Source: Macrostomum lignano
Taxonomy: Eukaryota
Direction: 5' to 3'
NCBI GenBank assembly: GCA_002269645.1
Contig: NIVC01001408.1
Location: forward strand, 1 to 64,000
DNA length: 64,000 nucleotides
Position 1 is the first letter of the stretch; each line of letters begins with the position of its first letter. The notes beneath the pieces are model-generated. The model made no database searches and was not told where the DNA came from. It was given only the letters and a program-made list of their open reading frames with translations. A program made the position numbers and the translations under genes. Below are positions 1-52,600 of the stretch, piece by piece.

Positions 1-1
1 T

Positions 2-142
2 CACATCAAACATGACATCCTTGTATTGTATCAGATGTTTCACGAAGGTTGTCTTTCCTGCATTTGTAGGCCCGCTGACAATCATGCAGCTTCCCTGTCG
101 CAGGCGCACATCATAACAGTTTATCCGCTCACGTGTTTCCAT
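2..142 (-). CDS. Polinton packaging ATPase (A32/FtsK-like), N-terminal part, truncated by the window edge
   Basis: Not in the ORF track. Hand translation from ATG 142 gives METRERINCYDVRLRQGSCMIVSGPTNAGKTTFVKHLIQYKDVMFDV, with Walker A GPTNAGKT, directly downstream of the protease. Confidence 0.85.
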   Translation of the reverse strand, partial: METRERINCYDVRLRQGSCMIVSGPTNAGKTTFVKHLIQYKDVMFDV

Positions 143-168
143 TGCCTGTTAAGCTAAATTCTTGATTT

Positions 169-693
169 TTAAAATCTAATTAAATTTCTTTTTCTTAAGC
201 AACTCTCAAACCTTTGCAGGATTCTTTCATTCAAGTGGCTCTGCTGATTTGCATGGAGGTGCCGCAGAACCCACTCAAACGAGCGCTTGAAACGAAACTT
301 TTGATAGGCAAACAAGAGACAGAACAAACCGCATTTAGCAGAGTTGCAGCTCTGAATTCGATTCACATTGCTACGTAAGTAGAATGGAGAATACCAAAAG
401 GATTTCAGTGCTCTGTGAATGATCTCTAAAGTGCTGGAGTCCCAGCCCAGAGAGTTAAAGAGTTCTATGGAATTCTCCTTATCAGTATAACAAACCACCC
501 AGTGACCGAAGGATGAGCTGTACTGAAGCAGAAAGAAAATAAACTTACATCGAGATAAATTTCTTTTGAGAGTTGCTCACTGAATAAAGTTCAAAGCATA
601 AGATGTTTTATTTATTGAATTCAAGACAATAATTAAACAGTTATTTTGTGGCAAAAAGCTTTTAGCCAGTTTAAGCAGTTGAAAAGCATCCAT
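169..693 (-). pseudogene. Adenain-like cysteine protease of the Polinton, with an in-frame TGA at 577-579
   Basis: ATG 693 is in frame with ORF 169-498. Motifs GHWVVCY (His codon 502-504), ELFNSLG and IQSCNSAKCGLFC (oxyanion Gln and catalytic Cys). One stop at codon 39. Confidence 0.85.
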
Positions 694-716
694 ATTAGCG
701 TTGCGCCAGCGTACTC

Positions 717-1998
717 CTAGGATGGAAAATCTAGCAGAATCTCCCTGTGCTTCGTGACCTCAATCAGTGAGTCATACAGGCACATAACAATCAGAGATAC
801 AGGCTCCTCCAGGGCCTGTCGGAAGCGAATCTCCAGCCGCAAATTTCCCTCCTTCTGCCCGTACCACAGGGCCGCTCCCTCAGGCGTGAGATCGAATGCG
901 AAAGCTGTGTTGCCGTTGGAGAACAACTGGTAGGGGACCCACGGAACCGAGTTGGTAGGGCTGGCTGACTGACAGCTTTTCAGGTAGTGCAAGTACTCTC
1001 TCACGAATGAATTATTCTCAGGTGCAAATGCAGCGTGGCACATGGCTTCACCACCTTTCTTTAGTGCTAGCTGGCTGAGGTTGAAGCTCTGGAACTCGAA
1101 GGGGCTGGAATGGTGATGGCCATTGAAGGCTCGGTGGTTCACGAAGACCAGCATAACGAACTTCGGCAGTTTGCCATGGGTGAATCCTTCAATGTTTTTT
1201 GACTGAATTCCCTGGGGTAGAATAAAGTTTTGCATTTCGGTTCGCTCGATGGGGTAAAGTGCGTTCTGATTGGTAAGTCCCTGTTCATGCGCCAGGCTGA
1301 TGTGAGGCGCCACTTTGACTCGGCGCAGGTTCAGAATGCAGTGGGAGATTTCCATTCGGTAGGCTGTGTTGTTCTCATCTGGGGTTCGGATGGCGAATGC
1401 AGTATCGCTGGGCATCAGCTTGATGTGCAGGTGTAAATTGTTCAGCAGCAGAACAGGACACTGGAAAATGTCGCTGAGCAGTGGTCCCGCATACTCCACC
1501 CAGCGGGACTCCCTGTGTCTCTCGGCATGCCCCTCAGCAGCAGTTTCGGGTTCCAGGAATCCGGCGGGGTAGAACTTTAACTGCTGAGCATCGGATGAGC
1601 TCATGAGAGCTTTTAGGTAGGCATGGTAGGGGTAGAGCTGGTCTCCACCTGATACAATGCTTGTTGATGCTCACGATTACATCTGAGAATGCCGTAGACA
1701 GGACAAAGTTTTCTGGGTGCACCCCACTGTCTCTGCGCTCAGTGACAACTCCATCGGCATTTCGAACCTCCTCCCTCATCAAAGCCCCGCCAAGCCGGAC
1801 TAGGCGACAGCGAATATACAGGAATGAGCTCAGCAGATCAGTGTACTCATCAGCCGATGGATGACAGTCGAATTCAATAGGTGAGTTAGTAGCAATAGAG
1901 TTCACGGGGTGAATATCAACATATGTGGATTTTTCAATGGCAGTCTGCAGCACGGGGGACTTGAACAAATCGAGTCTCGGGTTGAATCCGTAAGCCAT
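717..1998 (-). CDS. Polinton major capsid protein (double jelly-roll, F54H12.2-like), split by one frameshift near 1655
   Basis: N-part 1998-1655 has LDLF..P.LQTAIE..YVDIHP...SPIEF...EYTDL...LYIRCRL. C-part reads SGGDQLYPYHAYLKAL...KLPKFVMLVFVNH.AFNG....PFEF...EGNLRLEIRF...L...V..IVM..YD...EV. Joined length is about 426 aa. Confidence 0.88.
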
Positions 1999-2000
1999 TG

Positions 2001-2411
2001 CTATGAGAGTGAGTCTAGAACACGCTTCACAGTTTCTTTGCCCACTTTTTGGTTTCTTTTGCCTGTTTTCTTGCTTTGAGTTTTAGACCTCCCTTTCTTA
2101 GGTTTATTTCGCCCTGACTGGCTTCTTTTCGGTGATTTCTCCGTCTTACTCTTTTTCTTCTTTTTTGTCTGCTTCTTACTGCCCTGTTTGACTAGTCGCT
2201 GCTTTGGTCTGTTTCTATTGCTTCTGCTGTTGCTGCTGCTACCGCTGGTGGTGGTATGCCCTGGCTTTGATAGCGATATTGACTTTGTGGAAGCTTCTGG
2301 AGGAGGCTGGTAAGTCATAATTCCTGGAAAACTCCCACAGCCATAGAGCGCCGGCTTTTGGCTTCCTGCCAGAGTCCCTGAATACTGACGAATCAGCTGT
2401 TGGTAGTTCAT
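2001..2411 (-). CDS. Small Lys/Arg-rich protein between the capsid genes; putative virion core/DNA-condensing protein (136 aa)
   Basis: Very basic C-terminal half (KKQTKKKKKSK...). Start overlaps the minor capsid stop (ATGA), and its stop lies 2 nt from the MCP ATG. LYGC-G matches the adenain cleavage consensus. Confidence 0.65.
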   Translation of the reverse strand: MNYQQLIRQYSGTLAGSQKPALYGCGSFPGIMTYQPPPEASTKSISLSKPGHTTTSGSSSNSRSNRNRPKQRLVKQGSKKQTKKKKKSKTEKSPKRSQSGRNKPKKGRSKTQSKKTGKRNQKVGKETVKRVLDSLS

Positions 2412-3217
2412 TGTATTAGCCTTTCCCGAATATAAACTGTGAGCAGAACAGGGCTGCTGCTCCGAGCAGTCAGTGAGTAGCCAAAGATGTCACGCAGTTG
2501 AAATCTAATGCCATGTAGAAAATTAGCTTTCTGAATCGGGAAGAATATTGCTTTCTTAAACACTTTGCTCATGTAGCTGCCCCATTCGACATCGGATGAC
2601 ATGCTCACAGTTCGCAGCACGGAGTTCCAGTTACAGTTTGTTCGCTCCACAATGCTGCAGTGCAAGTTGATCAGGTTGGTGGGCGGACAACCGATGCAGC
2701 AGAGTGACACTTGCCGTCCGGGTGGGATCTTCACAGGCTGGTTTCCGAATCCCAGCCACTGCAGAATTTTACTTGATGGAAGGAACAATTCTGCTCGAGC
2801 CGTGTTGTTGAGCACTACCGTTCTCAACTCTTGGATTTCAAACTTTATGCCAATATCTCTAGCGCTGCTTCGCCCCATTAAACCGGACTCATCAGCTTCC
2901 ATTTCAGACTCCCTTTCGCTCATTGCATCGAAGAACAGTGACTCAGAGTTGGCCAGCAGCTCATTCATGCGCTCAACCAGTTCCTCCACTCTAGCAAAGC
3001 GTCCGGGTTGAAGAACCAGGGCCTCATGCTCTCTTCCATCTGAGACAGTGAAGCAGTAAGGCTCGTCAACATTGAACCATGCAGCAGGCAGATGGATTTC
3101 AGCCAGACCTGCCTCATAGTCCACATTTCGATCCAAGTAAATAGGTGAAGGCAGGTGAAAATGAAAGTCACTAGGAGTACCTTCAGCATTTTCGCTACAA
3201 ATGATGATGCTTCTCAT
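2408..3217 (-). CDS. Polinton minor capsid protein (penton-like, single jelly-roll)
   Basis: ATG 3217. Pattern S.NA.GTPSDFHFHLPSPI.L...YEAGLAEIHLP..WFNV...INLHCSIVE...SVLRTV...FFPI......IRFQLRD..G. Position between integrase and MCP. Confidence 0.8.
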   Translation of the reverse strand: MRSIIICSENAEGTPSDFHFHLPSPIYLDRNVDYEAGLAEIHLPAAWFNVDEPYCFTVSDGREHEALVLQPGRFARVEELVERMNELLANSESLFFDAMSERESEMEADESGLMGRSSARDIGIKFEIQELRTVVLNNTARAELFLPSSKILQWLGFGNQPVKIPPGRQVSLCCIGCPPTNLINLHCSIVERTNCNWNSVLRTVSMSSDVEWGSYMSKVFKKAIFFPIQKANFLHGIRFQLRDIFGYSLTARSSSPVLLTVYIRERLIQ

Positions 3218-3247
3218 AGTTGGGAATGGCTGCACAATGTCGGTATC

Positions 3248-4338
3248 TTACACTTTTCTTAAGTCCTTCTCATCCACCCAGTCAGTGGTCTTGTAGCCGG
3301 CCCACTTGACGAGATATCGGATCTTTCCCTTCCACTTCTCAGTCTTCAGAACCTTCTCGATTACATACAGCCGCTGCGAGTCCGGAACAGCTTGCAGCTC
3401 ATGCTCATGGAAGAGGCCTCTAATGTCTTCCCCCTTCATGTCTCGAATCCTGTACATGTAGGGATAATGCTTTGGTGCCCTAAACACTATGGTGTACACC
3501 TCCTCGCTCCAGTTCGCCTTGTATCCCTTCCTGAAGAGTCTGGGTGCATTGGAAATCCGCACATGATCTTTAAATGTGCGGATTTAAACCGGTTTTCACA
3601 GAACTTTGGTTTTCTCAGTTTCTCAACTGTCTCAATCGCTTTCCCATCATAAAGGTTCATCCACACTTCAGTCTCGTTTGCTTTGCTGACATTCATTGGT
3701 GTAGTCTTGATGCTTCTGTGGAAAGTATTGTTATAGGACTTGACCAGTTTAGGCAGCACATCAAGCCATTGTAGAGTGCTGTTGTGAGTAAAGTAACGCC
3801 ACATCTTGCTTTTTAAAGTTCGATTCCATCTTTCAATTATGGCTGCTTTGTGCACACTGCTAGTTGGAAACGCCAGAATCCCCCGGTCTATGCAGAACTG
3901 GCGAAAAATTGCGTTGACAAACTCCTTTCCCTGATCTGTGCGGACAGTGCGCGGCTGCCGCTTTGAGCTCTTCAGCATGCTCTCAAACGCAGATTTCACT
4001 TCTGCCGCGCTCTTAGACTTCAGTGCTCTGGCCATTGCAAATTTAGACAAAACATCAATGCAGGTGAGAATGTATTTATGCCCGCGATTATACTTTGCAA
4101 ATGGAATCATTTCCACCAGATCCATCTCCCACTGATCATCAATGGCTCTCACTATTATTGGCGCCCTTGGAAATCGTACTCTAGCTGGCTTATGCAGAGT
4201 GTGTACTGGCTGCTGACTTAGCCACTGCTCAATGCTCTTGACTCCAATATGCTCGCCTCTTTTTCGCAGTTCAGGTTGCAGTTTTGAAGAACTGCAATAG
4301 CTCGCAGGCTGATTTGGGTTGAAATAAATTTTTTCCAT
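3248..4338 (-). CDS. Polinton retroviral-type (rve, DDE) integrase with C-terminal chromodomain; frameshift near 3565-3575
   Basis: ATG 4338 (MEKIYFNP). DDE residues in WEMDLVEM..YILTCIDVLSK, RTDQGKEF and IIERWNRTLK. Downstream frame reads DHVRIS...KGYKANWSEE...YVIEKVLK...RYLVKWAGYKTTDWV (chromodomain). Confidence 0.92.
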
Positions 4339-4502
4339 TTTCGGAAACAAAGAAACATTTTTTTTAGGTTTTCTTAAGACATTGAAAATGCATAGCGCAT
4401 GTGAAAGCAAGCATATATTTTTTTTCAAACAAAGAGATGGAAAGCAGGTCTGGATAAATAGCTCGTAGCACAGAGTTTGTCTCAATGTCAGAGGGTCTGC
4501 AA

Positions 4503-5267
4503 TCAGTCGAAGCACGGCCTGGGCAGCTTCATGGCATCCAATCTGCGCAGAGCGAATGGCGGCTGCTTGCGTTTCCTGGCGTTCTCAGCGGCGGCTGTTT
4601 GAGCTCGGAACTGGTACCAGACTGGGTCCTCTTGCAGATCAGTGTCCTGCCGAGGAATCGCTCCAGCTGCAGGCTTGGTCAGTTGCAGAGGCGTTGAAGT
4701 GGCAAACGCTGTGTCGATTTGCAGATTGGATGGCATGCCAGCCTCGCCAGCAGCAGCAGCAGCATCGTCCTCCGCCTTCACTACCGGCTTGGTCTCTTCC
4801 GCGTTTTCGCCAGCATCGTCTTCATTTTCGATGCTGTCGGAGGAAGATCCCGACTCCAGCTCGTATGCATCGGAAATCTCACGTGGAGCCGATAGCTGCT
4901 CGTCGATCCAATCCGCGTACTGCCACAGCTTTCGCCACAGCGGCGGTGTCAGCGGCACGGTGTTCCGCTTAAGAAACTCGTCGCAGCAGTCCTCCGGCAA
5001 TCGCTTTAACCAGATAATGCCGTTTTTCACTTCGATGAACTTATCGAAGCCGAGTTTGACAACCTTTGGCTGTTTGTCCAAGGCCGCCTTGACAAGCGAT
5101 CGCTTCAACTCCTTGAGCTTCTCCCACTGACGGATGTTCAAATTGAAGCCGGGGACTCCAGGTTTCAAACTCGCAGTGCTGCCATGTCGGTAAAATTTTC
5201 TGATAGCAATGAACATAACTCCTTCATACTCCTGTATTTGGAGTTTATATCCTTCGCCGATGTCCAT
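4503..5267 (-). CDS. Protein with two tandem PC4/p15-like ssDNA-binding domains and an acidic low-complexity tail (254 aa)
   Basis: Domain 1: DIGEGYKLQIQEYEGVMFIAIRKFY...GFNLNIRQWEKLKE. Domain 2 is weaker: KLGFDKFIEVKNGIIWLKRL...TVPLTPPLWRKLWQYADWIDEQL. TATATAAG lies about 80 nt upstream on the minus strand. Confidence 0.7.
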   Translation of the reverse strand: MDIGEGYKLQIQEYEGVMFIAIRKFYRHGSTASLKPGVPGFNLNIRQWEKLKELKRSLVKAALDKQPKVVKLGFDKFIEVKNGIIWLKRLPEDCCDEFLKRNTVPLTPPLWRKLWQYADWIDEQLSAPREISDAYELESGSSSDSIENEDDAGENAEETKPVVKAEDDAAAAAGEAGMPSNLQIDTAFATSTPLQLTKPAAGAIPRQDTDLQEDPVWYQFRAQTAAAENARKRKQPPFALRRLDAMKLPRPCFD

Positions 5268-5412
5268 GACTTAAAATCTAACAGAATAAACTATCTCGTC
5301 GAAAAAAAATCGTTTTTTCATGAATCAAAGAGATTTTTTGGTCCTTATATAGACTAAACCACTGCAGCAGACATACAGCAATAGAAAAACATAGGCCTAT
5401 GTTCTCTCACTA

Positions 5413-5550
5413 AGGCCCCATGGAATTTCCATGGCTTTCCCTGCGGCAGAGTCCACCAATGCATTTACATAGGCGCTATGTTTACACACTACAGGCCCGT
5501 GGTTTTCCCACGGAAATTCCTGCGGCAGAGTCCACATTTCCCCTACTACT
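5413..5550. repeat. Candidate terminal (TIR) region of the Polinton: two ~45-bp direct repeats, each with a hairpin, then ACTACT
   Basis: CCTGCGGCAGAGTCCAC at 5440-5456 and 5519-5535. Hairpins CCATGG-N5-CCATGG (5418-5434) and CCGTGG-N5-CCACGG (5497-5513). Confidence 0.55.
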
Positions 5551-5587
5551 AATATCAACTGCATATACTGAATTATAATATTTATTA

Positions 5588-5700
5588 TAAAGTGAGCGGA
5601 GCACACACGCACATCACCTCTCTCGATCTTTTCTCTAGTTAGCCTTGGGCGATGCCAAACTTTAACATTTGTACATGCTAGCAGTGCCGCTGCAATTGAG
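5588..5700 (-). pseudogene. THAP zinc-finger domain fragment
   Basis: ...KVWHRPRLTREKIERGDVRVCSAHF matches the C-terminal THAP signature RVCSxHF. No intact N-terminal CxxC half was found. Confidence 0.4.
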
Positions 5701-5819
5701 TATGTCAAATTCGTTATTGAATTAATTATCTCTGGGTACCTTTGTGCTGTGATACACTGAAATTGTGGCGCTTATAATGTAGGCTGATTTATCTGCGTGT
5801 ATAACAGGTTCAAATGTAA

Positions 5820-11128
<5,309 letters not shown>

Positions 11129-11221
11129 TCCTTGTGCTCTTTTACCTTGGGGTTGCGATAGGGGCCTCGCGGCCTATTCGCGGCGCCTGCGCCCCCCGTC
11201 AGTAGTAAGTAAGTAAGTAAG

Positions 11222-11432
11222 TACAGGGTCTAATCTAACAGGTTTTAATCTAACAGGTTCTAATCTAACACAGGTTGTAATCTAACACAGGTTCTAATCT
11301 TACAGGGTCTAATCTAACAGGTTCTAATCTAACACAGATAATAATCTAACAGGTTCTAATCTAACACAGGTTCTAATCTAACAGGTTCTAATCTAACAGG
11401 TTTTAATCTAACAGGTTCTAATCTACCAGGTT
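11222..11432. repeat. Minisatellite, same 15/17-bp unit, right arm
   Basis: The array resumes immediately after the LINE tail. Confidence 0.95.
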
Positions 11433-11789
11433 CTAACTATGACACACCGTGGCACTCGGACCCATGCTGAAGTAAATTTTGTCAATTTACAATTTTAAAT
11501 TTCTTTTAAAACGATCGAGTCACTGACTGAGTCCTCAGTATAGCTCGCACAAGCAACTGCTCTCTTTTTCTCCTGACATTTTACAACTCCCATCGGCAAG
11601 GGTAAACTTACTCGCCACGGTAACAAAGCACTAGCTGGGCGATATCGCTTTGATGTCAGAAACTTCAAAGTTAAAGTTAAAAAGAAGACCTTGCATGGTT
11701 CTTTGATGTACCTGATGGGTGAACTGTCGAGAATCTTCTTTCTTTTAGTAAAATGGTTTTGAAAAAAGCTGAACTGGACTCTCAATGGG

Positions 11790-13666: not shown

Positions 13667-16600
13667 TCACTGGTCCGTCAGCAGCACAACTTTCTGCTTC
13701 CCTAGTCCCGTCCTGCGCTGTCTCAATCGCGAGCAGAAATTCCTCAGCCGATCCAGGGAGGACATGGGCTCCTCGGGCTTCGCCGTCGCCGAAGGTTTAG
13801 GAAATTTAACGCCACTGGCTGCTGGCCGAGCTCCTGATGTCGACGGAACACCCGCAGCGCATGTCGACGAAGAGTGAGCTGGAAAATAAAGATGGGGAAA
13901 AAGAGGGTTTCGGGAAATTCTGGCGCAACGCTGTACGCAAACACTCACTCGCACACACTTTCACACAGGGCACACAGCGGCCCTTTGACTTTCGAATCGT
14001 CAGGAATGTGCACTCTCCGTGCCTTGGCGGCTGGCCTTCATGAGTGTGAATCGTACAACAACTCCCCCGATCAACTTTCGAGCACAAGCCCCAAATGGAT
14101 GTGAACGAGTGGCACGAGAGCTGTTCAGTAAACCAAGAATTACCTAAAGGAAGGACTTCTGGTTGGGGTTTGGATTTCATCATCTGAGTCAGCTGGTGCA
14201 GCTGAGGTTCTTCGGCGGTTTTTGATGCTGCAGACGACGCGTCTCCATGCCGCCGTGTGGCTCTCGGGCTCAGCGCTAGCGAGTTGCAAACGTCGCCGCT
14301 ACAGCCGACCACGCGAACGAGCCGGCCGGATCGGTAGAACTCCTGGTAGGTCCGGGCGGGGCCCGGCTCCCACTGGGTGGCCCGGTCCACTCGGCTCTCG
14401 TCCCAGCGCCGTAGCCGAACGGTTTGAGTTGCTCGCTCCTCGGAGTCGGCCTCTACCTGGATGTTGCGCGAGAACAAAGCCAGCTGAGCTGTTTGCGAGC
14501 AGCTGTCGGCCAAGTCTCGGCGACGTGGCAAATGCGGCGTCTGCGTTGTCGCAACTGTTGCGGTTTTCGGCGTCGCTAATTCACTCGAACTCTTGTCGCC
14601 TTGACAACCAACGCTACTGAGCAACTTTGGCGGCGAATTCAATTCTAAACTGTCGCAGTCGTTGCTTTCCATTGAAGAGAACATCACGCTGCAGACTCGA
14701 ACTTCGTCCTCCGATGTTTGACGTCTTCTTGGTTCCGTTTGGAGAATGGCAACAGAGTCGAGATCGAGTTGCCAGGTAGTGACCGCGTTGCAGAACACAC
14801 CTTTGGTCTCCGAACAGGGCAGCGCAATCTGCAGCACAGGTTCCGAGTAATTTGTGCACTGCTCCCTCGTCAGTAGTAAATCCTGTTGACACACCTTCAT
14901 GCTCGATTGATCCAGTTCGTCAGTTGCTACCAGCGAATTTGATGTCTCAATAACATTCTGTAGGAATTCGTGCCTGCAGGCCTTGGCAAAGCCGAGTTGC
15001 ACTACCAGATGGAAGTCGGTTTGGCATTCGGCGTCCACGCTACTTGCCACCAGAGTGTCGGTTGTCAGCGACCGGCACACCGACGAGCGAAGCGTGCTGT
15101 TGTCGTACGTGAAAAATGACTCAGCCATGACGGAGGCTTCTTCTTCCCCGGCGTCGGCTGTCAGATCGCAGCTGCTGCCGCTGTCGCTGCTGCTTAACGA
15201 GGTGACATCAACGCAGCTGCCGGCGGTGCTGCCGCTCTCGCTGAAGCAGCAGGACGCCGTCAGGCGTTGCATCTCCAATCTTCCAAGGGTGATGGCCGGC
15301 GTCGTCACTTCGTTTGACGAAGCGGCGTCGAGAAACAGCAGCCGGAATCGGCGCGGCGTCGGCGGCGGCGTCGGCGGCTGGTAGTTGGTATAGCGAGCCA
15401 GGGTAGCCGCCACTCGAGGCGCCAGCATCAGCGACTCGGAGTAGCGGCCGCGTTCCACCAGCTCGCTGAAGCTGCTGACCTCGGTGAGATCGCGAAGTGC
15501 CGCTGCGATTTCGTGCCGACCGGACAGCAGATTCGAGCAGCAGTCGTAGAAACTGCGCAGCTCCTCCAGCAGAATCTGCTGAGCTGCTTTGATTGCCGCT
15601 ACCTGTAGAGGAAGGTCGGTAGTTCGGCCAGAGAAAGTCAAGGACGCCGTTACACCCTGTTGTGGCATGTAAGTGGCTGCCTGCCTGCAATCTGGCGCCT
15701 TGATTCGTCCCCCCTCAGAACTAAATAGTAGTCTCTCGTAAGATATTGTCACCGAAATTATGGTCATGCAAAAGTAAAAGAATCATCATGTCAAACATAC
15801 AATAAGCCTCATGCACAGACACTAAAAGATTAATTGGGGAATTGCTAAGATGCCAAGGCTCATAGGATATTTCTGAGATGTTAATTGGCTCATTGGATAT
15901 TTCTAAGATGTTAAGGCTCGGGGGAATCGCTATAATGCTGTGACTCTAAACTAAACGCCTAAACTGACCTGCTGGTTGGCAGCCTCCCGGATAGCCGTCT
16001 CCGTGTCAGTGAGGTGCGCCTCGATATTCCTGGCCAGTTGCAGAGCCGATCTCACCTGGCGCAGCTTGTCACCGCTGAGCCGGGAGAACTCGGCCAATTC
16101 GTCCGCCTTCTGCTGGGCGGCGTCTTTGAACTTGAGCACTGTGTGCTCCGCGTGCTCGCTCGAGAAGGTGCACCCGATGCACACCGGTGTCTGGCAGGAG
16201 GTGCAGAAAAATCGCACCAGCTCGTCGCTGTGCCGTTCGCATCGGAGCTCCATTTGCCGGTCAACGTCTACCAATTCGTGCTCGCTGGTGACGCGCACTC
16301 GCCGATGCCGCTGACGACAAGCGATGCAGAGAAGCTTGCCGCAGTCCAAGCACCTGCTGCTGGCTTGCCGGCTTCGATTGCAGAGGTCGCACAGCTCCGC
16401 GGCGGCTCCGTCGCTCATGGCGGCACTAGTAGAAGCACAAGAAGAAGACGCAGCAGCAGTCTGTTCCTGAGCCAAGCTCACCAGCTCAAGCAGTCGAGTT
16501 CGGACACTGTCAATCGGTAGGCGATCAACTCCGGGAGTGACGTCAGTCAGTCGGTGACAAGTCGGACACTGGATGCTGATCTGGATGCTTCGATAACGCG

Positions 16601-16820
16601 ACGGTCTTGTAGGCGCCGCCGCAGCTGCCAAGGTGTCCAGACAGCAGCGGCAGACGGCGTGCAGGCAAACAAGAAGCCGCGGCTGCTCGAAGTGCAGAAG
16701 GCACTGAGGACAGCGCAGGAAGTCGTCGGATAGCCGAGAAAGCAGCAAGCCAGGATTTGCGGCCGCGATCGACGACGCTGCGCCGAAACTTCTGTTGCAG
16801 GCGCTGTTAGTCTGGGACAT
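13667..16820 (-). CDS. TRIM/RBCC-family protein (RING, two B-boxes, coiled coil, long Ser/Thr-rich tail), 3 exons, ~840 aa
   Basis: Exons 16820-15969, 15602-14144 and 13878-13667 with phase-compatible GT/AG (total 2523 nt). RING CPQC...CLHAVCRCC...CPTC. B-box1 CDLC..CLDC..LC..C..H...H. B-box2 CERH...FC.SC..PVC..C....H..H. Confidence 0.85.
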
Positions 16821-17251
16821 TTTCCCTGGCACTAACACCGCAAACTATTTCCTAGAAATTCCAGCTAAGTAAGCATTTACTGCAGTATATACTGCTGGTC
16901 AAGATTTACGCTGATTTGGGACAATTATAAACAGTTCCACTACGACTTTTGCCTAATCTGTAGGCAGCGCAGTCCTGACTAGAGCTTCATATTTATAGGG
17001 AATGGCGATCTCCCGGACCAGGGAAATGGGACAGTTCGTGGTTGGTTGGACTTTGCGTCTTTCGCTGGCTGCTGCTGCGTGTTTAGTCGAGTCTCTAGAA
17101 TTGGGGGAGATGGAGGACGCAGGGGGGGGGGGAAAGCGAGGCACGGAAATTGGGAATCTGGGAAAGTGGGAGAGTTCCGAATCGGCATCTGAAGAGGAGG
17201 TTTGGGAAGATGTTTTATGGTCTTTGGGGTCCGGCATATTGCATGCAGCAC

Positions 17252-25434: not shown

Positions 25435-28332
<2,898 letters not shown>

Positions 28333-36035: not shown

Positions 36036-36849
36036 CGCGCCCTGTGACGTTGTCTCGCGCCTGACTGGCTGACAGCGTATTTTGCAGTTGTTGCATGTTT
36101 GTTGTTTATGCATGTAAATAGCTAGATGTACAACATGTTATGTGATACAAAAGTTGGTTTACATATGTACATGTAAGTTTAGATGGTAATGATCGCAAAG
36201 TATTCTAATACGTACATATACATGTAACGATACTATATGCAGCAGAGGCTAGTACTGCAGGTTGCATTATTGTATTAATACTCAATCTGCAACTAAAAAG
36301 GCGTGTGGGCTACATGGTTGCAATCAATAACTCGTAGTTACATAAAAATGTATAAGATTATTTTTTAGAGAGTTGTTGGTCTACATGTACATCGACTAGT
36401 GCACGTAAAGAGCTCCCATCAATCTCATCAATGTTTTACTTTAAATAGTTTCGTACTGTTACCGATAGAAAAATAACACTTACTGTTCTGCTGGGCGTGC
36501 TTCGAAAGAGAGGCAGGTAGTTTTTTTAGTTTCTTTTTATAAAAACTAAACACTGAATAAAACAACAAAACAGCCACAACTTTTGGCATTACTTGGGGCT
36601 CAGGGCCCTACTGCCGCCCCGCCTGATTGGAAATCACTAACCATGAGCTGCAATCCTGCATGCATACTTCAACCTTCTAAAGTTTAGTACAACTTGAAGT
36701 GGTTAGACTGTCGAACAGGCTATTAAAATAATAAAAATAATTTAATTTAATACTTACAAATTGTTTAACTAGAAAAATAGCCTATACTAAATTAAGGCTA
36801 AAACTGTTTGTTTAAACTTTAGATAGCTTGCTTAAATTATTAAAAAAAT

Positions 36850-38040
36850 CAAAAACCTTTTTTGGTCCTTCAAGACACATTTACGACTATGGAAAATTAC
36901 TGCAAACAAAATTACTTGAAAGTAAACGCAAGCAAAACAAAGTTCATGCAGGGCAATACCAGACAAAAAAACGACGCAGAAAGCATTGCTACAAAAATAT
37001 ACTACGACAACCAAGAAATAGAGGAAGTAAATGAATTTAAATACCTGGGAATTATTTTTGAACCAAAAAACAGCTTTAAAAAATGTATTGAACACCAAAC
37101 TAAGCAGGGATATACAGCCATGTTTTCCCTTCTCCATAGGGTAAAGAATACGTCCCTAGACATCACACTCATTCGCAGACTATTTGACGCGCTTGTTACC
37201 CCCGTTATCACTTACGGTTGTGAGCTCTGGGGCCCTCTGGCTACCATGTCTGATACAAAAGCTATTGATAATATTCAGCTGAAATTCTACAAATATCTCC
37301 TCAATCTACCAAAATTTGCTAGCAACAGTGTGATATCATCAGAACTTGAGCTTACTCCAATCTCTCAACGAATCGCTAAAACCTACCTCATCTACTGGCT
37401 GAAGATTAGACACAAAAAACTCTGCCAAACGACTCTAGAAATTTTCTACTCAAACACCAGCCAAAAAAATCCATGGAAAACAAATGTACTAAAGAAACTG
37501 GAAAGTATAGACTTAAAAGCACTAACTGATGATAAACTTTCCCAAAGCTTTAATAACGAGAAATACCTAGTGAAAAAGCACCTCAAGATACACAGAGAAA
37601 GAGAACTTAGCCAAAAGCTAGAGAATCAGCAACATATTAAACTCTACAAAAACGCCTATCTCTACAAAAAAATCTGCAGGCCCGACCTTTCAGATTACTT
37701 TCCATGCACTTTTAGAAACAAAAAATTCTTAACAACCCTCCTAAAACTGAAATGCGAAATTACACCCAACATTTTCTCTCATGAAGCATGTAGACTGTGT
37801 GGAGCGAGAAATGGTTCCGATATCCTACACTACTTGACCGAATGTCCACAAACTGAAAAGATCAGAAAAAAATACTTCCGTCAGCACCTCTTAAATGACA
37901 AGCAAGTACACAAGTTAGGATATGCTACAAATGAAAAAAGAGTCAGAAAAGAGCTCACTGGTGTAGCTAAAATATATGAAGTCATGAATAGCTAAAACAG
38001 TTATGCAAACTGAAACAGACATATCAGCAGTGTAATAAAT
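36850..38040 (+). mobile_element. 5'-truncated AT-rich non-LTR retrotransposon (RTE-X/CR1-group-like); open 377-aa C-terminal ORF2 part at 36862-37995
   Basis: LKVNASKTKFM, VNEFKYLGIIF, LFDALVTPVITYGCELWG and C-terminal CRLC...DILHYLTECP. The YADD core is absent. Confidence 0.85.
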
Positions 38041-42445: not shown

Positions 42446-43652
42446 GAGGCAGAGTTTGCCTGATATTCTATATAGCACCCTAGCCAACAATATCAATGTT
42501 TGCCTCAAATCCTAATTTTACACGAATGTACACTATTTTATGTTTAACTCAATCCTAACTATTAACAAGTTTTTGTTTGAGTTTGACCTCAGACTTTAGA
42601 ATACATGCTAAAATAATTCTAGGGAATGGAGTTCCTTGGGTTCAAAATTGGCAGGTTTCAATAGCTTGTCTATAAATAAATGGCAGGCGCATTGCCAACC
42701 CTTCACCTTTTTCTCTCTCCCATTTTCTTATTTCCCACCTATTATAACAAAAAAATTTAAAGAACCACCACCTAGCCTTTTTCCTTCCCTTTATTTTCAT
42801 TAAACCCCTACATAGTTTGTTATAAAATTCAACTACTATAAAAACATCTCATATTTCATTTTTATGTTCTTGTAAGACAATTAATATGATTGATAGCTAA
42901 ATAAATGAAAATATGAATGATTTATATTTTTTTATTGTAGATATTGTTATCATAAATATCTAATGCCAAATACTAAAAAAATATATATTGTACTCAAGGT
43001 ACAACTGATACTTATAAACTAAATTAAAGTAGAATGCTACTTTAAGTAAATTTTTATAATTTGGAATTTTATATATTGTTGGTTAGGAAAATTGCTACAT
43101 TGGAAAAGAAGTAGCAAAATTATATTAATTTTCTTTGCACAATATTGATGTGTTATACAACTATAAAGCATATTTAAAAACTTAAGCACCATTTAACAAG
43201 TTTAATATCTTGCCAAATCTATTCAAACTATAAAAGAATGCATTTGGACATGTTTATCTAAGATAACATAAAAAGTATGAGTAAATCTTAGATATTATCT
43301 GACCATTTTGTTACTTGAGGCAACATTTAGTTATGTTTAATGCAACATTGCAACAAATAGGTTGTTTTGCTATATAAAACTAGACTATCAAAAATAAAAA
43401 ACCTTTGAGTTGCTGAATTACATAATTGATATATTGGTCTATATTTTAAAATATTTTAAAATATGTAAATATTTTGCATGTAAATCTTGATTTTCAAATA
43501 CTTCTTCATTTAATACTATTATTACTGCATGATTTATACTTCACTACTGGTATTGACTTACAAGAGTAAATTGATCAGCAGTTTGTGCTGAAGCTGCCAA
43601 TAAACTGTAAACTGTAATTATATAGCTTACCAATACATAACTGCACACAGCT

Positions 43653-46600
43653 ATGCAGCAGGCGCAGCAGCAGAATGCGGGCAGCACAAGCAGCTCAGTT
43701 GCTCGCACAGCCACCCTCATTGAGGCCTGGCATCGCAGCCGAGACCAAGCCGGTTACAACCCTGTGCCAACCCTGCTGGAAATCTGTTCCCTATTAGAGC
43801 AGGAGACTGAGAATTATTTCCATTTGGATCCAGATCCGTTTGACGAGCGCAGCCCCGCGAAAGCTAATCCCAACAGCACCCTGGCCGCGATGTACAAAGT
43901 ATTGTTTCGCTGGGATGAAGTCTTTGTTCGCTATGCTTTTCGCTATATACTTATGGACAAGCCTAATTGCGAGAATGTTAAAGAGTTAACTATAGTTGCT
44001 ATGCGATTTCTAATTACCGCTATGCAATCGATTGACACGTTTCACGCCTTCACCGAGAATGAAGAAGTGATTGACTATTTATATCTGCTAGCTGATAACG
44101 CTCCATTGCCGGCTAGTTGCTATGCTGCAAATCTGTTAGGCTTTGCTCTGGACTCTTCGGACATTGTCTTCCGCTATCGGGCTCACAATACCCGACTCAT
44201 TCCCGTGCTACTGCGTCGGCTAATTGCGCTCAAAGACGAAATGCTATCTGTTAATGCTCAGCATTCACTTCACGGATGTAAGTATTGAATTGATGTAAAA
44301 AATCACTTTGGTTGTGATTGAATTTTACCTACTAAAATTTTTTTTTTAACAGTCGTGCTTTAAAATCTTAGTTTTTCTCGACTGCAGCGATAGTTATTTT
44401 CGCTACATATCAACTAGAAGATCTAGTCACTAGTTAGATGAATAATTGCTTTAATAAGCTATTTTCGCTACATATCGGCTAGTCAATAACGTAACTAGTT
44501 GTCTATTATTGCCTTACAAAGTTTTTTACGCAACATATCGGCTGGTCGATCGAGTTACTAGTTAATTGTGTATTTTTGCTTTACAAAGTTATTTACGCTA
44601 CATATCGGCTAGTTATTCTGTGCTTGTTATAATCTTGTTATAATTAATTTTATTTAACGTGCTAAATATTATAAAATGAAACATTTATAATTAACTCAGC
44701 CTCGAGTGCGGCATCTCTGCAACTCATTGACGGCGACTGTTCAAATAGCAGTACTCGCGATGTACTTGCTGGCAGTATCGGGACCTACAGTCTGCATCCG
44801 CTAACTATAGAGATGCAGCAGCGTCTCTACCTCACCTATCTAGTGCCAATGGCCGAATACCAAGAGGTCCTAGCTCCGATGCTCGAGTGTCAGGCTGTAC
44901 AATTGATATTCGACTACATTGATCCTGGACTTACTAAGGATATAAGATTGACATTTAACGCTCTGCGACTACTGTGCGCTATGCTGTGCCATAAGAAATT
45001 CTCTGTCGAGTTTCTACTGCAAGGCGGAGTTCAACGACTGTTGAGAGTTAGACGACCTTCAGTGTCCTCTACTGCAGTCTCTGTAGCCTTCTACTATTTG
45101 GCCTACTTTGAGGACTCCATGGAAAGGGTGAGTTGTTTCTAATATAAAAATGAGTCACAGAAAGTCATTCAATTTTCATGTTGAGTCAGCTCGTGTAATA
45201 CCGATAGGTCATAGGTCGTAAAAAATTAATAGTGAGTCATAGGGATAGCTCATCTAATAGTGCAGGATGCAATTGATAGTTCATCAATATCAATGTCATG
45301 CATTAGCGATGGGCCATCAAAGGTCATAAAAATCGATAGTTGGGTCATAGAATGTCGTGTATGGTTTCAATTTGTCAATCTTGGAATCTATGGAAGACAC
45401 ACCTGAAAGGTCATGAGACATCAGTTGTGTCAGGTGTCACAACGCCAAATACATTTCAGCTTTGCAGTCTGCCAGAAGATTTAGTGGCCAATTTAGTCGA
45501 GTACGGCCTATGGCTGCTGGAGTGCTCCCATAACACTGGTCGTTGCTATGCTACGATGTTCTTCTCTCACGCCTTTGGCTTTAAACTGATTTTGGATTAT
45601 TTTGACAAGCAGGACGGTTTGAGAAAGCTGTACAATGTGGTGAGTTTCTGTAGCTTGTTGTTTAATGAGAATTATATTTCACCGACTTGGGATCTGGATT
45701 GTACTCGTAGGACTTGGGATCTGGATTGTAGGATTTGGGATCTGGATTGTAGGAATTGGGATCTGGATTGTAGGAATTGGGATCTGGATTGTAGGATTTG
45801 GGATCTGGATTGTAGGAATTGGGATCTGGATTGTAGGAATTGGGATCTGGATTGTAGGAATTGGGATCTGGATTGTAGGAATTGGGATCTGGATTGTAGG
45901 ACTTGGGATCTGGATTGTAGGAATTGGGATCTGGATTTTAAGGAATTGGGATCCGGGTTGTAGGAATTGGGATCTGGATTGTAGGACTTGGGATCTGGAT
46001 TGTAGGAATTGGGATCTGGATTTTAAGGAATTGGGATCCGGGTTGTAGGAATTGGGATCTGGATTGTAGGACTTGGGATCTGGGTTGTAGGAATTGGGAT
46101 CCGGATTGTAGGAATTGGGATCTGGATTGTAGAACTTGGGATCTGGATTGTAAGGAATTGGGATCCGTAATTAAGGATGTGGGATTTGAACTTTCTGGAC
46201 TCGGTATCTGGATACGAGGACTTGAAATCTGAGTTGTTGGACTTGGGTATTGCGATTTTAGGATTTATTATGTTGGATTAGGGGATTTAGGATTTGAGTT
46301 TCGGTCTGATTTTAGGAGTTTTCCTAACTTAAAAATGGACTAACTTTATAATCTTGGATCTAGAGGAATTTGCCTTCGCTTATTTAGAATATCATTTAGT
46401 CCTTATTATGACGTAGGGATTAGAAATAATGTTTATGCAATGTTTATGCAAGCAACATAAGCTTGAATCAAACAGTGATATAGGAAGTCTCAATAAAAAA
46501 TAAATCCAAGCAATGCGTTCTCGTACACGGTTATAATTGTCTTAAGAGCGAGCGGGGCTGTTCTTTGATCAATAAAAAATTAACAGTAGAAAATATATCA

Positions 46601-49600
46601 GAAGCGGAAGGACAGCGTTAGTCATTCACGTTTCGTTTTGGTTTTTCGAAAATTGAATGTAAAAATAAAAATCGCGTCGACCGAAGAAAAGTTGGAAGTG
46701 CCGACAGGTTTCCAATGAAAAAAAATGTCTGATCAAATAAACAAAGGAGACGCGTTGGTTGTTTGTTCGGCATTGATCAAATTCTGCCAGTTTGCTGTTG
46801 TCGGCAGAGTCGGTCTACAACGCCTCGAATCGTGTGGATAATAATATCTCGTTGGTATCTTTTGCAAAGCAGATTTGCTAGCGAGTTGCCAGTTATGCCT
46901 GCCGCTTCAGTAGTTGCGGATCCGGGCCTGTTAGCTGCTGTTGGCACGTTGAAATTGTTGCTATCGCCGAAACCGCCTCGGAAAGTGATGGTAGCTTGAG
47001 TTGCTGGACGAGATTCTGCCGATTGGCGAGTGTCTTTGCTTAGAAGTTCGTCCTCATCGTCAACTGTGTCGGATTCGATTGCGTAATGCAGCTCCTCAGC
47101 GTTCCAGGCGGTTTTCTTGACGCAGATAGGAACAGCCGGGGCGCTGAGGTTGCTGTCTTTGGCGCTGCAGCAGCTTAGCGATGTAAACTGATCGCTGCTA
47201 GTTGCTTGCTGTTGTGTGCTCACGTACTGCGGCCGTTTTGGCTGTTGTTTCTGTTGCTGTTGCTGTTGCTTCGAGTTCTGTTGCTGCTGTCGCGTTTCCC
47301 GAGCAAATGAAGCGATGCGACCCAGGCTGCCATTGATTCTGTCAATTAAATCGATTGAAGTCTCCGATGAACTGAACGATGCTGCATTATCCTTCATCGT
47401 TTTGAGCTCTCTAGATGGTGGAGTAGCTATATACATTGTTGACGCCGAAGATACCGTTGCTATGGGAGCAGCCAAACTGTCGGAATCGTCAAATCTGACT
47501 CGATATTGGCTTCGCTGGCTGTTTGATCGTCGACAACTTTTGAACTTGTCCGTCTCGTATGCTGTTGTCGCGATTTGGTTGTTACTGCCAGTTTCTCCGC
47601 AATCCACGTCTAATTGCACTGTTTCAGTTGATGATCTTTGATTCAAACTGAGATGTTGATTTAAGTCCACTAATAATCTACCGTTGCTGTCCATGATTCT
47701 AAGGCTGATTCCAATTGAGCCAACATCTGCTGGCAGCATGGCCACGTGCTGACTGAGGTCATTCGACATCCTTGCTCTTGTTGGTCTTTTGATTGACAGC
47801 ACCTGATTGCAATGATGATGATAGTAGTGATCTGACTTGATATAGTAAGTTATTTAGCCTTCGGCTTCAATTCCATTCCAATTAAGAAACAGCTTTCAAT
47901 CGTATTTGCTTCATCTTGGTAATAAAAAGATTTTCTTTTAGCTTTCTGTCAATTGTCTATGACCAAAAGTGGTTCGCATATCTAGCTTTTACTGAGATAT
48001 GAGCTGAAGTAACTACTGCGTTCTCAGTAGGTTTATAGCTGCTCACCTTGTCAAGTGGGTCTATAGCTACTCACCTTTGTGTCCATCAGTGGGTCCACAG
48101 CTACTCAGCTTTGTGTCCTACAGTGGGTCCACAGCTACTCACCTTTGTGTCCTTCAGTGGGTCCACAACTACTCACCTTTGTATCCTTCAGTGGGTCCAC
48201 AGCTACTCACCTTTGTATCCTTCAGTGGGTCCACAGCTACTCACCTTTGTGTCCTTCAGTGGGTCCACAGCTACTCACCTTTGTGTCCTACAGTAGGTCC
48301 ACAGCTACTCACCTTTGTGTACTTCAGTGGGTCCACAGCTACTCACCTTTGTGTCCATCAGTGAGTCCAAAACTACTCACCTTTGTGTCCTACAGTAGGT
48401 CCACAGCTACTCACCTTTGTGTCCTTCAGTGGGTCCACAGCTACTCACCTTTGTGTCCTACAGTGGGTCCACAGCTACTCACCTTTGTGTCCTACAGTGG
48501 GTCCATAGCTACTCACCTTTGTGTCCTACAGTGGGTCCACAGCTACTCACCTTTGTGTCCTTCAGTGGGTCCACGGCTACTCACCTTTGTGTCCTTCAGT
48601 GGGTCCACAGCTACTCACCTTTGTGTCCATCAGTGGGTCCACAGTTTCTCACCTTTGTGTCCTTCAGTGGGTCCGCAGCTACTCACCTTTGTATCCTTCA
48701 GTGGGTCCACAGCTACTTCACCTTTGTGTCTTTGCGGTCCTTTAGTTACTTTTCAGTTTGTGGTACTTTTAGCGTATGGATAGTGGAATGTCAAATCTGT
48801 CAATAACCAACTTAACATTCCAGATGGCAACTCAAGTGATCTTCACCGGCACAGACGATGAAGTGGCCCTACTACCAGAGGACGCACTGTTCACATGTCG
48901 TCAGATTGTGAAGCTAGTTACTGGCGCTTTGAGGCGCTACTTTGAGCTGCACCTGCTGTACAAATCCGAATCTCTTAGCCAAGAGCAGCAGCAGTCGCAT
49001 CAGGCACTGATGCTGCAGCATCCGCTTTCGCTAAGTCTGATGGAGCACGGACCGCAGCGTACGCTCAAATATACGGCTGAGCAGGTTTGTAAAGCCTTCT
49101 ACTTTTCTGAGACAGCTGTGTTTGAAAGTCGATTCTTAGAAAAATTACCCTGCAATTCCCTTTGCAGTGAATGTATCCTCATTAGAGTTCCGCATAATTT
49201 CCTCATCAAGCAATGATTAACCCTAAGAAATACGTTGTAGTTAATTCTTCGAGAAAAATTCTCCACCCTGGCAGTACCGTAGTGACTTTTAATTCCTCTA
49301 GAAAAATACCCCACCACGCTGTAGTGACTGCTAATTCCCCTAAAAAATTCTGCTACCTCGCTGTAGTGACTGTTACTCCTCTAGAAAAATACCCCACCCG
49401 GTATATTGACAGGTAATTCCTCTAAAAAATACCCTACCCCACTAGTAACTGTAAATTCCTATAGAAAAATACTCCTAATACCCCTAGTGAATGTTAATTC
49501 CCATAGAAAAATACCCCTAGTGACAGGTAAATCATATAGAAATATACCCCTAGTGGCGGTAAATTCCTATAGAAAAATACCCCTAATACCCCTAGTGACT

Positions 49601-52600
49601 TAATTCCTATAGAAAAATACCCCCTAATACCCCTAGTGACTGTTAATTCCTATAGAAAAATACCCCCCTAATACGCCTAGTGACAGTTAATTCCTATAGA
49701 AAAATACCCCCTAATACCCCTAGTGACTGTTGATTCCCCTAGAAAGTTTTTCCTTAATTACCCTTATTCCCCAACAGGTATCGGAAGCGTGCACAGTGCT
49801 GCTACACCTGGCCCAGCCCGACCTGACCTGGCTACCAGTTGACTCTCTGGACCGTCTGAACGGCTTGAACTTCCTACTACGCTTAGTAGCCTTGTCGGCA
49901 TTCGAATGGGGCCCACACAGTGGCCGGCCGGAGACCATACAGCACTCCCTAGCAGTGGTGCTTGTGTGCTGCTGCGTTGCCAAGCAGATGCGCCAGATGC
50001 TGGTGAAATTCAGCATCACGGCCGATTACAAAGCCGACGGTATTCAACTGCTTCTCACCCTGGCCGACAATGAGGAGTTTCTCGATCCTGAAGTGCAGAA
50101 ACTGTCATTGGCTATATTGAATCTGTGCGTTAGTAGGCCTCTAGATAGCGAACTAATGCAACAGCAGCATCAGCCGTTGCAGCATCATCGCGATGAAGCA
50201 TCGGATTTTGTTGCCGCTAACATTTTGGAGACACCTAGTAGCAATCAGCAGCAGCCATCTGTTACTAAACTGACTGGCTCGGCTGTGAAAAGGCGGGCTG
50301 TGAGTTTCCTGTTGACTTCGTATTTAAACAAAAAGCTAGCGCATTTAAGAATATCGTCACTGATGTCAACAATAAAGTCTATAGAAATGTCTATGAGTCA
50401 GAAATAATGTCTGAGTTGGGGTCAATAATGACGCCTATAAGCAGATTAGGAGTAAGGTCTGAGAATCCAGGGATGGTGTCAGAATGAGGTCAGGAATGAG
50501 ATTAGAAATGAATGAGGTCAGGAATGAGATTAGAAATGAATGAGGTCAGGAATGAGATTAGAAATGAATGAGGTCAGGAATGAGATTAGAAATGAATGAG
50601 GTCAGGAATGAGATTAGAAATGAATGAGGTCAGGAATGAGATTAGAAATGAATGAGGTCAGGAATGAGATTAGAAATGAATGAGGTCAGGAATGAGATTA
50701 GAAATGAATGAGGTCAGGAATGAGATCAGAAATGAATGAGGTCAGGAATGAGATCAGAAATGAAATCAGGAATGAGATTAGAAATGAAATCAGGAATGAG
50801 ATCAGCAGTAATGTCAGCAATAAGGTTAGGAAATTGGTCAGAAATGAGTTCAGGAATGTCCGAATGAGGTCAGAAATGAGGTCAGAAATGAGGTCGGAAA
50901 TGAGTTCAGAAATGAGGTCAAGAATGAGGTCAGAAATCAGTTCAGGAATGAGGCCAGTAATGATGTCAGGGATGAGGTCAGAAATAGGGTCAGGAATTAA
51001 GTCAGAAATAAAGACAAGCTATTAGGTCATTGAAAGGGTAAATTACAGAAGTGATTGCGTGAGCACTGCAATAAGGTCAGGAATATTGCTTGAAGCGTTT
51101 CCAAGAAAAGTTCTGCATGTATATTTATTAAATTGCATTTAGGATCGCCAGCCAATCACTGCGGTGGTGTGTACACCCCAGCAACAGCAGCAGCAGCAGC
51201 AGTGCACCAAAGAGCAATACGTCCAGCAGGTGTGGCGCGCAGTGCGCTCTTGCAACGGTATAATGAGCCTGCTCAGATTATTAGAAACTCGAACTCCATT
51301 AACGGATGCAGATTGTATCCGAGCGCTAGCCTGCCGATGCTTATTAGGCTTATCTCGCGACGATAAGATTAGCCAAATGCTGGCTAAACTGCAACTATTT
51401 AGCAAAGGTCACCTGCAGTTGCTGATGAAGGAACCTGTGCTGCCAGACAAGCTCCGCGATCACGCTAAATTTGTTCGGTCGGCTAGTAAATTAATTGAAC
51501 GCGTGTCTGGCGGTCAGGCTCACAAGCAGATCAATGGCATTGGGGTTAACAGTAGCGACACTGGAGCCGGATCCGTGAACCACGGTGCCAATGGTAGTGC
51601 TGGATTATCTGGTCCAACCGCCAATCACTCGGTGCTGGGCTCGGGCGGATTAGCCAACGTCGGCATCGGTGGCGGCGTTGTTTCCGGCGTGGTCGAAGGC
51701 GTTGGTAGCGGCGCCACAAACGGCGTCGTGTCTGGCGGCTCCGGCGTGTCGATGGAGTGGCTGCGTCGGGCGGAGATTGTCGCTAACACCCGGATCACGT
51801 GGGACGGCAAGGAGCTGCTGCACCTCATGTACAATCACCTGCTGAGCAAAGGACTCTCCGAGTCTGCCGCTGTGCTGCAACGCGAAGCCGGCCTTCGTGT
51901 GGCCGGTGACAAGCCGGCTGCCATAGCAACTAATATCTACCACTCGGCTGGCATGGTTCCACCGACGCCGTCAACGCCAGCTAGTTCCGCAGCGGTTGCT
52001 AAGCAACAACAACAGCAGAAGCAGCAACTATTGGCCTCGTCTGCTGCTTCCACTCTGACTAATAATGAGAAATCGGATTTGTCTTCTTCAATGTCAACTT
52101 TAGGTGGTCAGACTCTGCTGATGTCGCCAAATAATAATTTTAATAGTATCGATTCAGCCAGTCCTAGCCTACCGTTGAAGGTTAATATTGTTCGTAATAG
52201 TTGTGTACGAACTGGTGTGCAGGCTGTTTGCTCAATGCCCCAGCAGCAACCGGCTCAGCAACCGCAGCAACCACAGCCATTGTCTCTGCAACAGACTACA
52301 AGTTTAGGTCGCGATCGACCGTCGCAGTACAATCTCTATTTGCAGGTAAGTTTTTGCTTAAAATATACAATCTTACTTAAGCATACAAGCTAACTTGAAC
52401 TAATGATGTACATAGCTGTGACTGTGGTGAATCAAAAAGGATCACTAAGTGACTGAAATGATAGAAAAGTGACTGATGATACTAGAGTGAGTGGACTGGT
52501 TGAAAAGCGACTAAGATTATCAGAGTGATAAGATGATCCAGAAGTGACTGAGATGATCCAAGAGTGACTGAGATGATCCAAGAGTGACTGAGATGATCCA

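Follow-up and report, generated by a model that had tools for sequence, protein, structure and literature searches.

A Maverick/Polinton end with a terminal PC4-domain gene in Macrostomum lignano

The first 5,550 nt of a 64,000-nt stretch of Macrostomum lignano DNA (contig NIVC01001408.1 of assembly GCA_002269645.1; the whole 64-kb stretch is called the window here) hold seven open reading frames (ORFs), all on the minus strand. From the terminus inward, these encode a PC4-domain protein, an integrase with a chromodomain, a minor capsid protein, a basic protein, a major capsid protein, a C5 protease, and the start of an ATPase (Table 1). A sequence-only reading made earlier had listed seven ORFs in this order on a single strand, which the sequence and the ORF positions bear out, and had assigned them to the Polintons, or Mavericks, an assignment that agrees with the domains, the capsid fold, the module order, and the end motif. 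We consider it probable, with good confidence, that this segment is one 5.5-kb end of an integrated Maverick/Polinton with integrase, capsid, protease, and ATPase genes. Several young copies likely exist in the host species, this being one of them. Three of its genes are damaged, and for its terminal PC4-domain protein the prediction is binding to single-stranded or melted DNA, which would form during element copying.

The Polinton/Maverick identity of positions 1-5550 is well supported, because the major capsid has a double jelly-roll (DJR) fold, the minor capsid links to the penton family, the DDE residues of the integrase are intact, the module order and the end motif are the published ones, and a DNA_pol_B_2 domain occurs in relatives. 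Everything but the PC4 ORF is a textbook Polinton arrangement. The element is a new and likely young member of a well-known class in which only the PC4 accessory gene is unusual, and the unusual terminal gene announced by the sequence-only reading is indeed its sole out-of-ordinary feature.

Table 1. Features of the element end and its junction, with positions in the window
Feature	Positions	Strand	Evidence and remarks
Probable packaging ATPase start, first 47 residues, Walker A	1..142	-	P-loop Pfam families; cut by window edge
Adenovirus-type (C5) maturation protease	169..693	-	Pfam Peptidase_C5 1e-5; in-frame stop at 577-579
Double jelly-roll major capsid protein	717..1998	-	Homologs, AlphaFold2 and Foldseek; frame broken near 1660
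Basic ORF, 136 aa, PW position	2001..2411	-	Composition, 26% Lys+Arg; putative role
Minor capsid protein (probable penton), 269 aa, open	2408..3217	-	Family profile and position
Retroviral-type integrase with C-terminal chromodomain	3248..4338	-	Pfam rve 8.7e-17, Chromo 1.7e-3 (below cut-off); frame broken near 3560-3590
Terminal accessory ORF, 254 aa	4503..5267	-	PC4 domain at residues 3-53, Pfam 3.6e-6
TATA-like box	5345..5351	-	About 80 nt upstream of terminal ORF; putative function
Probable terminal inverted repeat (TIR) region with two 60-nt subterminal direct repeats	5397..5542	-	TIR status judged from one end; partner beyond window
Element terminus 5'-AGTAGTAG, (AGT)2 Maverick end motif	5543..5550	-	Sequence; motif in PMC8097293; flank contig of run X15 from 5551
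Candidate 6-bp target-site duplication (TSD), one copy	5551..5556	+	Adjoins element end

Gene content, gene order, and the element end

Pfam was run on 10 open pieces of the element and recognized the terminal ORF, the integrase, the protease, and the 47-aa ATPase start, while the two capsid genes and the basic ORF had no match in this search. For the major capsid, structure prediction supplied the evidence. Its 317-aa piece has 16 homologs among 549 candidates, the nearest being unbroken 427-aa proteins of 78% identity. An alignment of 80 rows (the window piece, 15 of the 16 homologs, and 64 of the 68 full-length locus matches, with one fragment and four near-duplicates dropped) gave an AlphaFold2 (AF2) model with a pLDDT of 86.4. 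Foldseek returned 69 PDB matches to this model at E <= 0.001, and among the matches listed all are DJR capsids, from PBCV-1, an iridovirus, EhV-201, Sputnik, mavirus, African swine fever virus (ASFV), faustovirus, and adenovirus. Among viral models, an adintovirus capsid was matched at 2.7e-8. AF2 and Foldseek together thus back the jelly-roll structure that had been expected of this gene. A PDB sequence search with the 16-row major capsid profile found no match.

The minor capsid protein has 44 relatives at E <= 0.001. A 45-row profile, made from the window sequence, 36 of these relatives, and 8 locus ORFs chosen by position, matched the PBCV-1 capsid chain P1v1, which we take to be a penton variant, at 2.8e-4 and the EhV-201 "Penton protein" at 1.2; no Pfam capsid family was found in any of the 45 rows. 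Its Atlas matches, at 0.97, include a Sputnik V18/19 cluster, with a recognition value of 2293, slightly under the mark. These profile results make a jelly-roll fold likely for this protein as well. The basic ORF is likely a DNA-condensing core protein, and the positionally matching ORFs of relatives are similarly rich in Lys+Arg (19-29%). A comparison with the PW-position ORFs of 11 relatives revealed no homology (probability 1.2; no HMM [hidden Markov model] match).

The integrase keeps its catalytic D73, D135, and E169, with spacings of 61 and 33. Its frame breaks before the chromodomain, at a perfect 12-nt inverted repeat (3553-3585), and in related loci the two pieces correspond to single ORFs. 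In the protease, a His-Trp pair is invariant in 9 of 9 aligned rows, and one expected catalytic position departs from 8 of 8 relatives, which may be a family trait or a fourth lesion.

Relatives were sought among metagenomic loci whose major capsid is related to this one; the 80 best of 192 matches were used. By tblastn, the integrase core was matched in 17 of these 80 loci, the ATPase start in 9 (some matches falling in ORFs that Pfam labels Pox_A32), the protease in 8, and the minor capsid in 3; the terminal ORF and the basic ORF were matched in 0. Pfam, run on 138 of the 166 ORFs from 17 longer loci, detected DNA_pol_B_2 in 3 of the 17. Locus L040 also has a BIR/RING gene, and L031 has KilA-N and PLA2-like genes.

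The order integrase-minor capsid-basic-major capsid-protease recurs in L027, L028, and L060. In the window, the gap between the terminal ORF and the integrase is 164 nt, followed by a gap of 30 nt, a 4-nt overlap between the minor capsid stop and the basic ORF ATG at 2411, and gaps of 2, 23, and 26 nt. The sequence-only reading had called this spacing operon-like. Its tightness is confirmed by the measured gaps, but it is not special, since L020, which continues into an A32 ATPase, is equally tight, with 4-41 nt gaps across the same five genes; operon-like spacing was therefore rejected as a distinguishing feature. Both order and spacing are the norm, because the order recurs in these loci and in vertebrate Mavericks and the spacing in L020. 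The same reading had also described the virion module as full. The genes are there, but the word overstates the case, since the window edge truncates the ATPase and no homology could be detected between the basic ORF and its positional counterparts.

In a quick capsid tree, the window sequence and P0002-P0005 form a 5-row clade on a stem of 1.44 changes per column with a support of 100, far from all other rows. The element represents a further Polinton lineage, long-branched and showing signs of recent insertion.

Of the two end motifs of Mavericks, (AGT)2 and (AG)3, the terminus here has the former. At the element end, the 19-nt terminal pattern occurs once in the 64-kb window (0.01 expected), and the terminal 8-mer alone occurs 6 times. 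The two subterminal direct repeats (5397-5456 and 5476-5535) are 75% alike, and read depth is raised in bin 5405-5597. The TATA-like box is the sole TATATAA on the coding strand of the element. The ATPase, major capsid, and terminal ORFs each have a splice-acceptor-like AG 2-3 nt ahead of their ATG (143-160, 1999-2010, and 5268-5290, minus strand), and for the major capsid this AG belongs to the upstream stop codon. Such acceptor-like ends would fit one long spliced transcript, or they may be due to chance. Records from runs X15 and X1 share positions 5417-5452 and then diverge into another ACT-repeat end; they probably represent a sister or nonautonomous family with related ends. In one X2 record, 343 other letters are joined to 5440-5521, possibly the other TIR.

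Copies, age, and damage

The stretch is present in 20 of 24 listed sequencing runs, from one organism and 7 studies, and four of those runs were compared in detail with the element. In DNA run X15, a 1174-nt contig is identical to the window over 5551-5790, and toward the element it carries on for at least 80 letters in sequence that does not belong to the element. Because the match starts at exactly 5551, it fixes the element end at 5550, and the contig is likely an empty site. The four longest X2 pieces have 38 differences from the window in 4979 nt, and eight X1 pieces have 36 in about 4050 nt, so that the related records are about 1% diverged from the element. The claim of recent activity in this host thereby gains indirect support, from multicopy records, from this low divergence, and from the likely empty site. 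Natural particles or free linear DNA might also be sought in such a host, with its young copies and apparent empty site.

The three lesions that the sequence-only reading had counted, one stop and two frameshifts, were all seen (Table 1). At each of them, at least 3 of the 4 runs have covering records that depart from the window sequence, and the breaks appear to be private to this copy or assembly. The same observation would fit assembly errors in an otherwise intact genomic copy, since at all three sites the window stands apart from other records. We regard such errors as unlikely: there are dozens of single-letter differences with a third-position bias, as in a distinct real copy, and the integrase break sits in the 12-nt inverted repeat, which is more like a repair scar. 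A bias toward third codon positions is as expected if copies diverged under selection, and within the basic ORF, 7 of 12 differing places are at third positions. Two runs that we guessed to be RNA yielded contigs on the element, none in the flank bin, and no splice joints, the same picture as DNA of a multicopy element.

Relatives of full size may exist as well. The longest contig is 14,411 nt for each of P0003 (major capsid), P0021 (minor capsid), and P0066 (PC4 homolog). If these are a single contig, the three genes occur together in a relative as large as a whole element. Whole Mavericks span 12.7-24.6 kb in the data seen from PMC8097293.

Several points weigh against the account of an element end with young sister copies. 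First, the protein-primed polymerase pPolB, a second TIR, and a TSD were not seen, and the 64-kb window holds one element end only. Second, the capsid TM-scores are 0.32-0.40, low because the partial model is without about 110 residues; gene position was the criterion for 8 of the 45 minor capsid profile rows; and searched alone, the minor capsid sequence has neither a PDB nor a Pfam match. Third, the evidence on copies has bounds of its own. The X15 flank contig may be one allele or a duplicated flank, and the X15 depth (1312-2856 for element pieces, with one divergent piece at 97, versus 211 for the flank contig) is no copy number and is read only as "several copies." The codon-position count (18 of 32 in-ORF differing places at third, 11 at first, and 3 at second positions; p 0.006) rests on 40 of 122 difference rows, of which these 32 lie in ORFs, and the identity of the three 14,411-nt contigs is an assumption.

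The missing polymerase could also mean that the element is a polymerase-less derivative, which keeps the virion module and the integrase and borrows pPolB from another family. The absence of pPolB from the window and the other records that share subterminal sequence would agree with such a derivative, but the window ends inside the ATPase, and homologs lie on 14.4-kb contigs with room for pPolB, which makes it quite improbable. We keep to a Polinton end whose remaining genes would be expected beyond the left edge.

The terminal PC4 gene and its possible role

A single PC4 domain in the terminal ORF is a solid prediction from its sequence, and the ORF's profile matches human PC4 structures at E 2e-4. 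The domain (residues 3-53) is followed by a conserved beta/alpha block at about residues 65-127, a variable acidic linker, and a conserved C-terminal helical tail. Three relatives of 56-60% identity were found among 1001 candidates, plus 2 cluster members; residues 1-127 and the C-terminal block are kept in the relatives, and it is the acidic linker that varies. The best Atlas match is a 134-aa PC4 cluster at 0.88, commonest in molluscs, which is a lead only.

The sequence-only reading had proposed two PC4 domains in this protein. The first, a beta4-alpha repeat, is confirmed by a Pfam match above the cut-off and by the PDB profile, but the second gave no signal in sequence tests. The second block is PC4-like by eye, and a low-confidence AF2 model from 4 rows (pLDDT 45.7) gives it three strands and two helices. 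Nevertheless, residues 62-130 have no Pfam match at E values up to 10, and a half-versus-half hhalign of the ORF gave a probability of 0.18, below the best of 100 shuffles. A second repeat likewise left no signal in pairwise shuffles or against a profile of the canonical repeat. With the low-confidence model of the ORF, Foldseek found 0 matches at E <= 0.001 and VIA-align found none with Z >= 5, and a complex prediction of the two halves reached 0.27 versus a mark of 0.34.

A profile of the first repeat found one more PC4 ORF among 81 loci, at L034:2317-2835 on the minus strand (Pfam 2.1e-6), beside a protease and a major capsid. The first half of that protein holds a candidate degenerate repeat, one without statistical support. 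PC4 in only 1 of the 81 related loci also counts against the account given above and indicates that it is not a core replication gene. This frequency is a floor, as most of the loci are short and 18 of 81 reach 6 kb. IMG/VR scans returned 0 loci for queries A2, A1, and the L034 PC4 ORF and 1 for A5. In the literature searched, we found no report of PC4 in Polintons, and supplements of bioRxiv preprints and most subscription papers may list it as a Polinton accessory gene. In the one paper in which the terms "Polinton" and "PC4" both occur, PC4 is the label of a cluster, and a clam genome paper has PC4 among its gene families and leaves Polintons unmentioned.

What might the protein do? We tentatively favor single-stranded DNA (ssDNA) binding or end melting in replication, by analogy, because PC4 folds bind melted DNA and because pPolB viruses often carry unusual ssDNA-binding proteins. 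According to the part of PMC7549692 that was available, PC4 folds have no sequence preference when they bind melted DNA, and their unwinding of duplexes needs no ATP. According to the corresponding part of PMC4889955, pPolB viruses often encode unusual ssDNA-binding proteins of a non-OB type.

Alternatively, the same element may use the protein as an RNA polymerase II (Pol II) coactivator to raise transcription from the promoter at its own terminus, not as a replication factor, and this we hold possible. PC4 is a general transcription cofactor, and the best structural relatives of the ORF are human PC4. The PC4 gene is the first one behind the TATA-like box, 16 of the 70 linker residues are acidic, and homologs of TBP are found in 4 of the 17 longer related loci (L052, L031, L066, L067) and of TFIIB in 1 of the 17 (L052). 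Nevertheless, neither TBP nor TFIIB is found in the 5.5 kb seen, and PMC7549692 describes a PC4 homolog in phage T5 that acts as a replication factor. Very improbable, in our view, is a host gene fragment that was caught by chance and has no function for the element. PC4 has no counterpart in 80 of the 81 related loci, as a chance capture would have it, though these are mostly short, with 18 of at least 6 kb. However, in three diverged relatives the ORF has stayed open, at 56-60% identity, and its N- and C-terminal blocks are conserved around the variable linker; a distant lineage also has a PC4 ORF.

With the favored ssDNA-binding role, the genes can be joined into a proposed life cycle. The DDE integrase would insert the linear DNA, a step taken from family knowledge, and the chromodomain would likely tether it to chromatin. 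After excision, the linear form would be copied from its ends by strand displacement; the enzyme would be a protein-primed polymerase, expected to lie beyond the left edge of the window, and the PC4 protein may bind the single-stranded or melted DNA arising in this copying. Major capsid trimers and pentons would form a shell, to be filled by the ATPase with DNA condensed by the basic protein, and the protease would mature the particle. This copy is without a whole integrase, major capsid, and protease and would depend on sister copies. Integration by a DDE integrase, protein-primed strand-displacement replication, and a virion assembly kit are described for Polintons in the parts seen of PMC4028283 and 10.1101/2023.08.22.554363.

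A bolder proposal, which we regard as doubtful, is that distant Polinton lineages repeatedly recruited PC4-fold proteins as an ssDNA-binding or end-melting factor in the role of adenovirus DBP, here as a two-repeat single chain in a family that is still transposing and polymorphic in its living host. If this is true, such a family would open Polinton replication and particle formation to direct tests. The papers searched yielded no ssDNA-binding protein for Polintons, a role for which the PC4 ORFs of two distant lineages are concrete candidates.

Surrounding DNA and comparison with known systems

Beyond the element, the window contains a non-LTR retrotransposon at 7082-11222 (plus strand), in three frames, with endonuclease (2.5e-22), reverse transcriptase (1.1e-30), and RNase H (7e-13) domains and a short TAAG-type repeat at its end. 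The same ACAGGTTCTAATCTAAC satellite lies on both sides of it (5804-7081 and 11223-11436), and the retrotransposon looks like an insertion into a ACAGGTTCTAATCTAAC array. Further on, there is a host gene piece with RING and B-box domains (TRIM-like) at 15951-16844 (minus strand), which is the chief sign in the sequence of an animal host, an ORF at 26716-27267 (plus strand) resembling an ALK/LTK glycine-rich region (2.5e-4, below the cut-off), and a 383-aa ORF at 36844-37995 (plus strand) with no Pfam match, presumably a retroelement remnant. A multi-exon host gene with minisatellite-filled introns spans 43641-57800 (plus strand); three of its exon pieces had no Pfam match at 0.001, and we take it to be DCAF1/VprBP-like.

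Among known systems, the polintoviruses and adintoviruses (Krupovic 2014, PMC4028283; Starrett 2021, PMC8502044, both in part) have in common with the element a DJR major capsid, a probable penton, a probable packaging ATPase, an adenovirus-like protease, and a retroviral-type integrase, and the window major capsid matches an adintovirus capsid structurally. PC4 has 0 occurrences in the main texts of these two papers, and none of PLA2X, GasderminX, and Oncoid was recognized in the part of the element seen. The adintovirus Alpha/Beta class rests on the OTU-PolB type, by the available part of PMC8502044, and PolB lies outside the part of the element in the window.

The vertebrate Mavericks are the closest parallel in layout. 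As described in the portion seen of Barreat and Katzourakis 2021 (PMC8097293), they have an integrase-minor capsid-PW-major capsid-protease module, the (AGT)2 end, and flanking accessory regions. The likeness extends to accessory ORFs between the end and the core and to the degradation of most copies, and that source, as far as seen, records no observed particles as of its publication. Their ATPase is usually in an opposite-strand pPolB module, whereas here it follows the protease on the same strand. The PW-position ORF is here unrecognizably diverged, and the accessory gene encodes a PC4 domain; the term PC4 does not occur in the searched supplement of PMC8097293.

Two of the related loci come near in other respects. 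L020 has the same run of minor capsid, basic, major capsid, protease, and A32 ATPase genes on one strand with tight spacing, and L034 has its PC4 ORF beside the major capsid and the protease. However, the major capsids of both are about 30% identical to that of the window and far apart from it in the quick tree, and the L034 PC4 ORF is on the opposite strand, with the canonical domain in the second half of the protein.

Finally, the terminal ORF can be set beside the PC4-like family, which includes PC4/Sub1, PUR, Whirly, and the phage T5 factor and, in the part of PMC7549692 available, is divided into type I (two repeats in a single chain) and type II (homodimeric) domains. It has in common with them one canonical PC4 domain and differs by its extra acidic linker and C-terminal tail.

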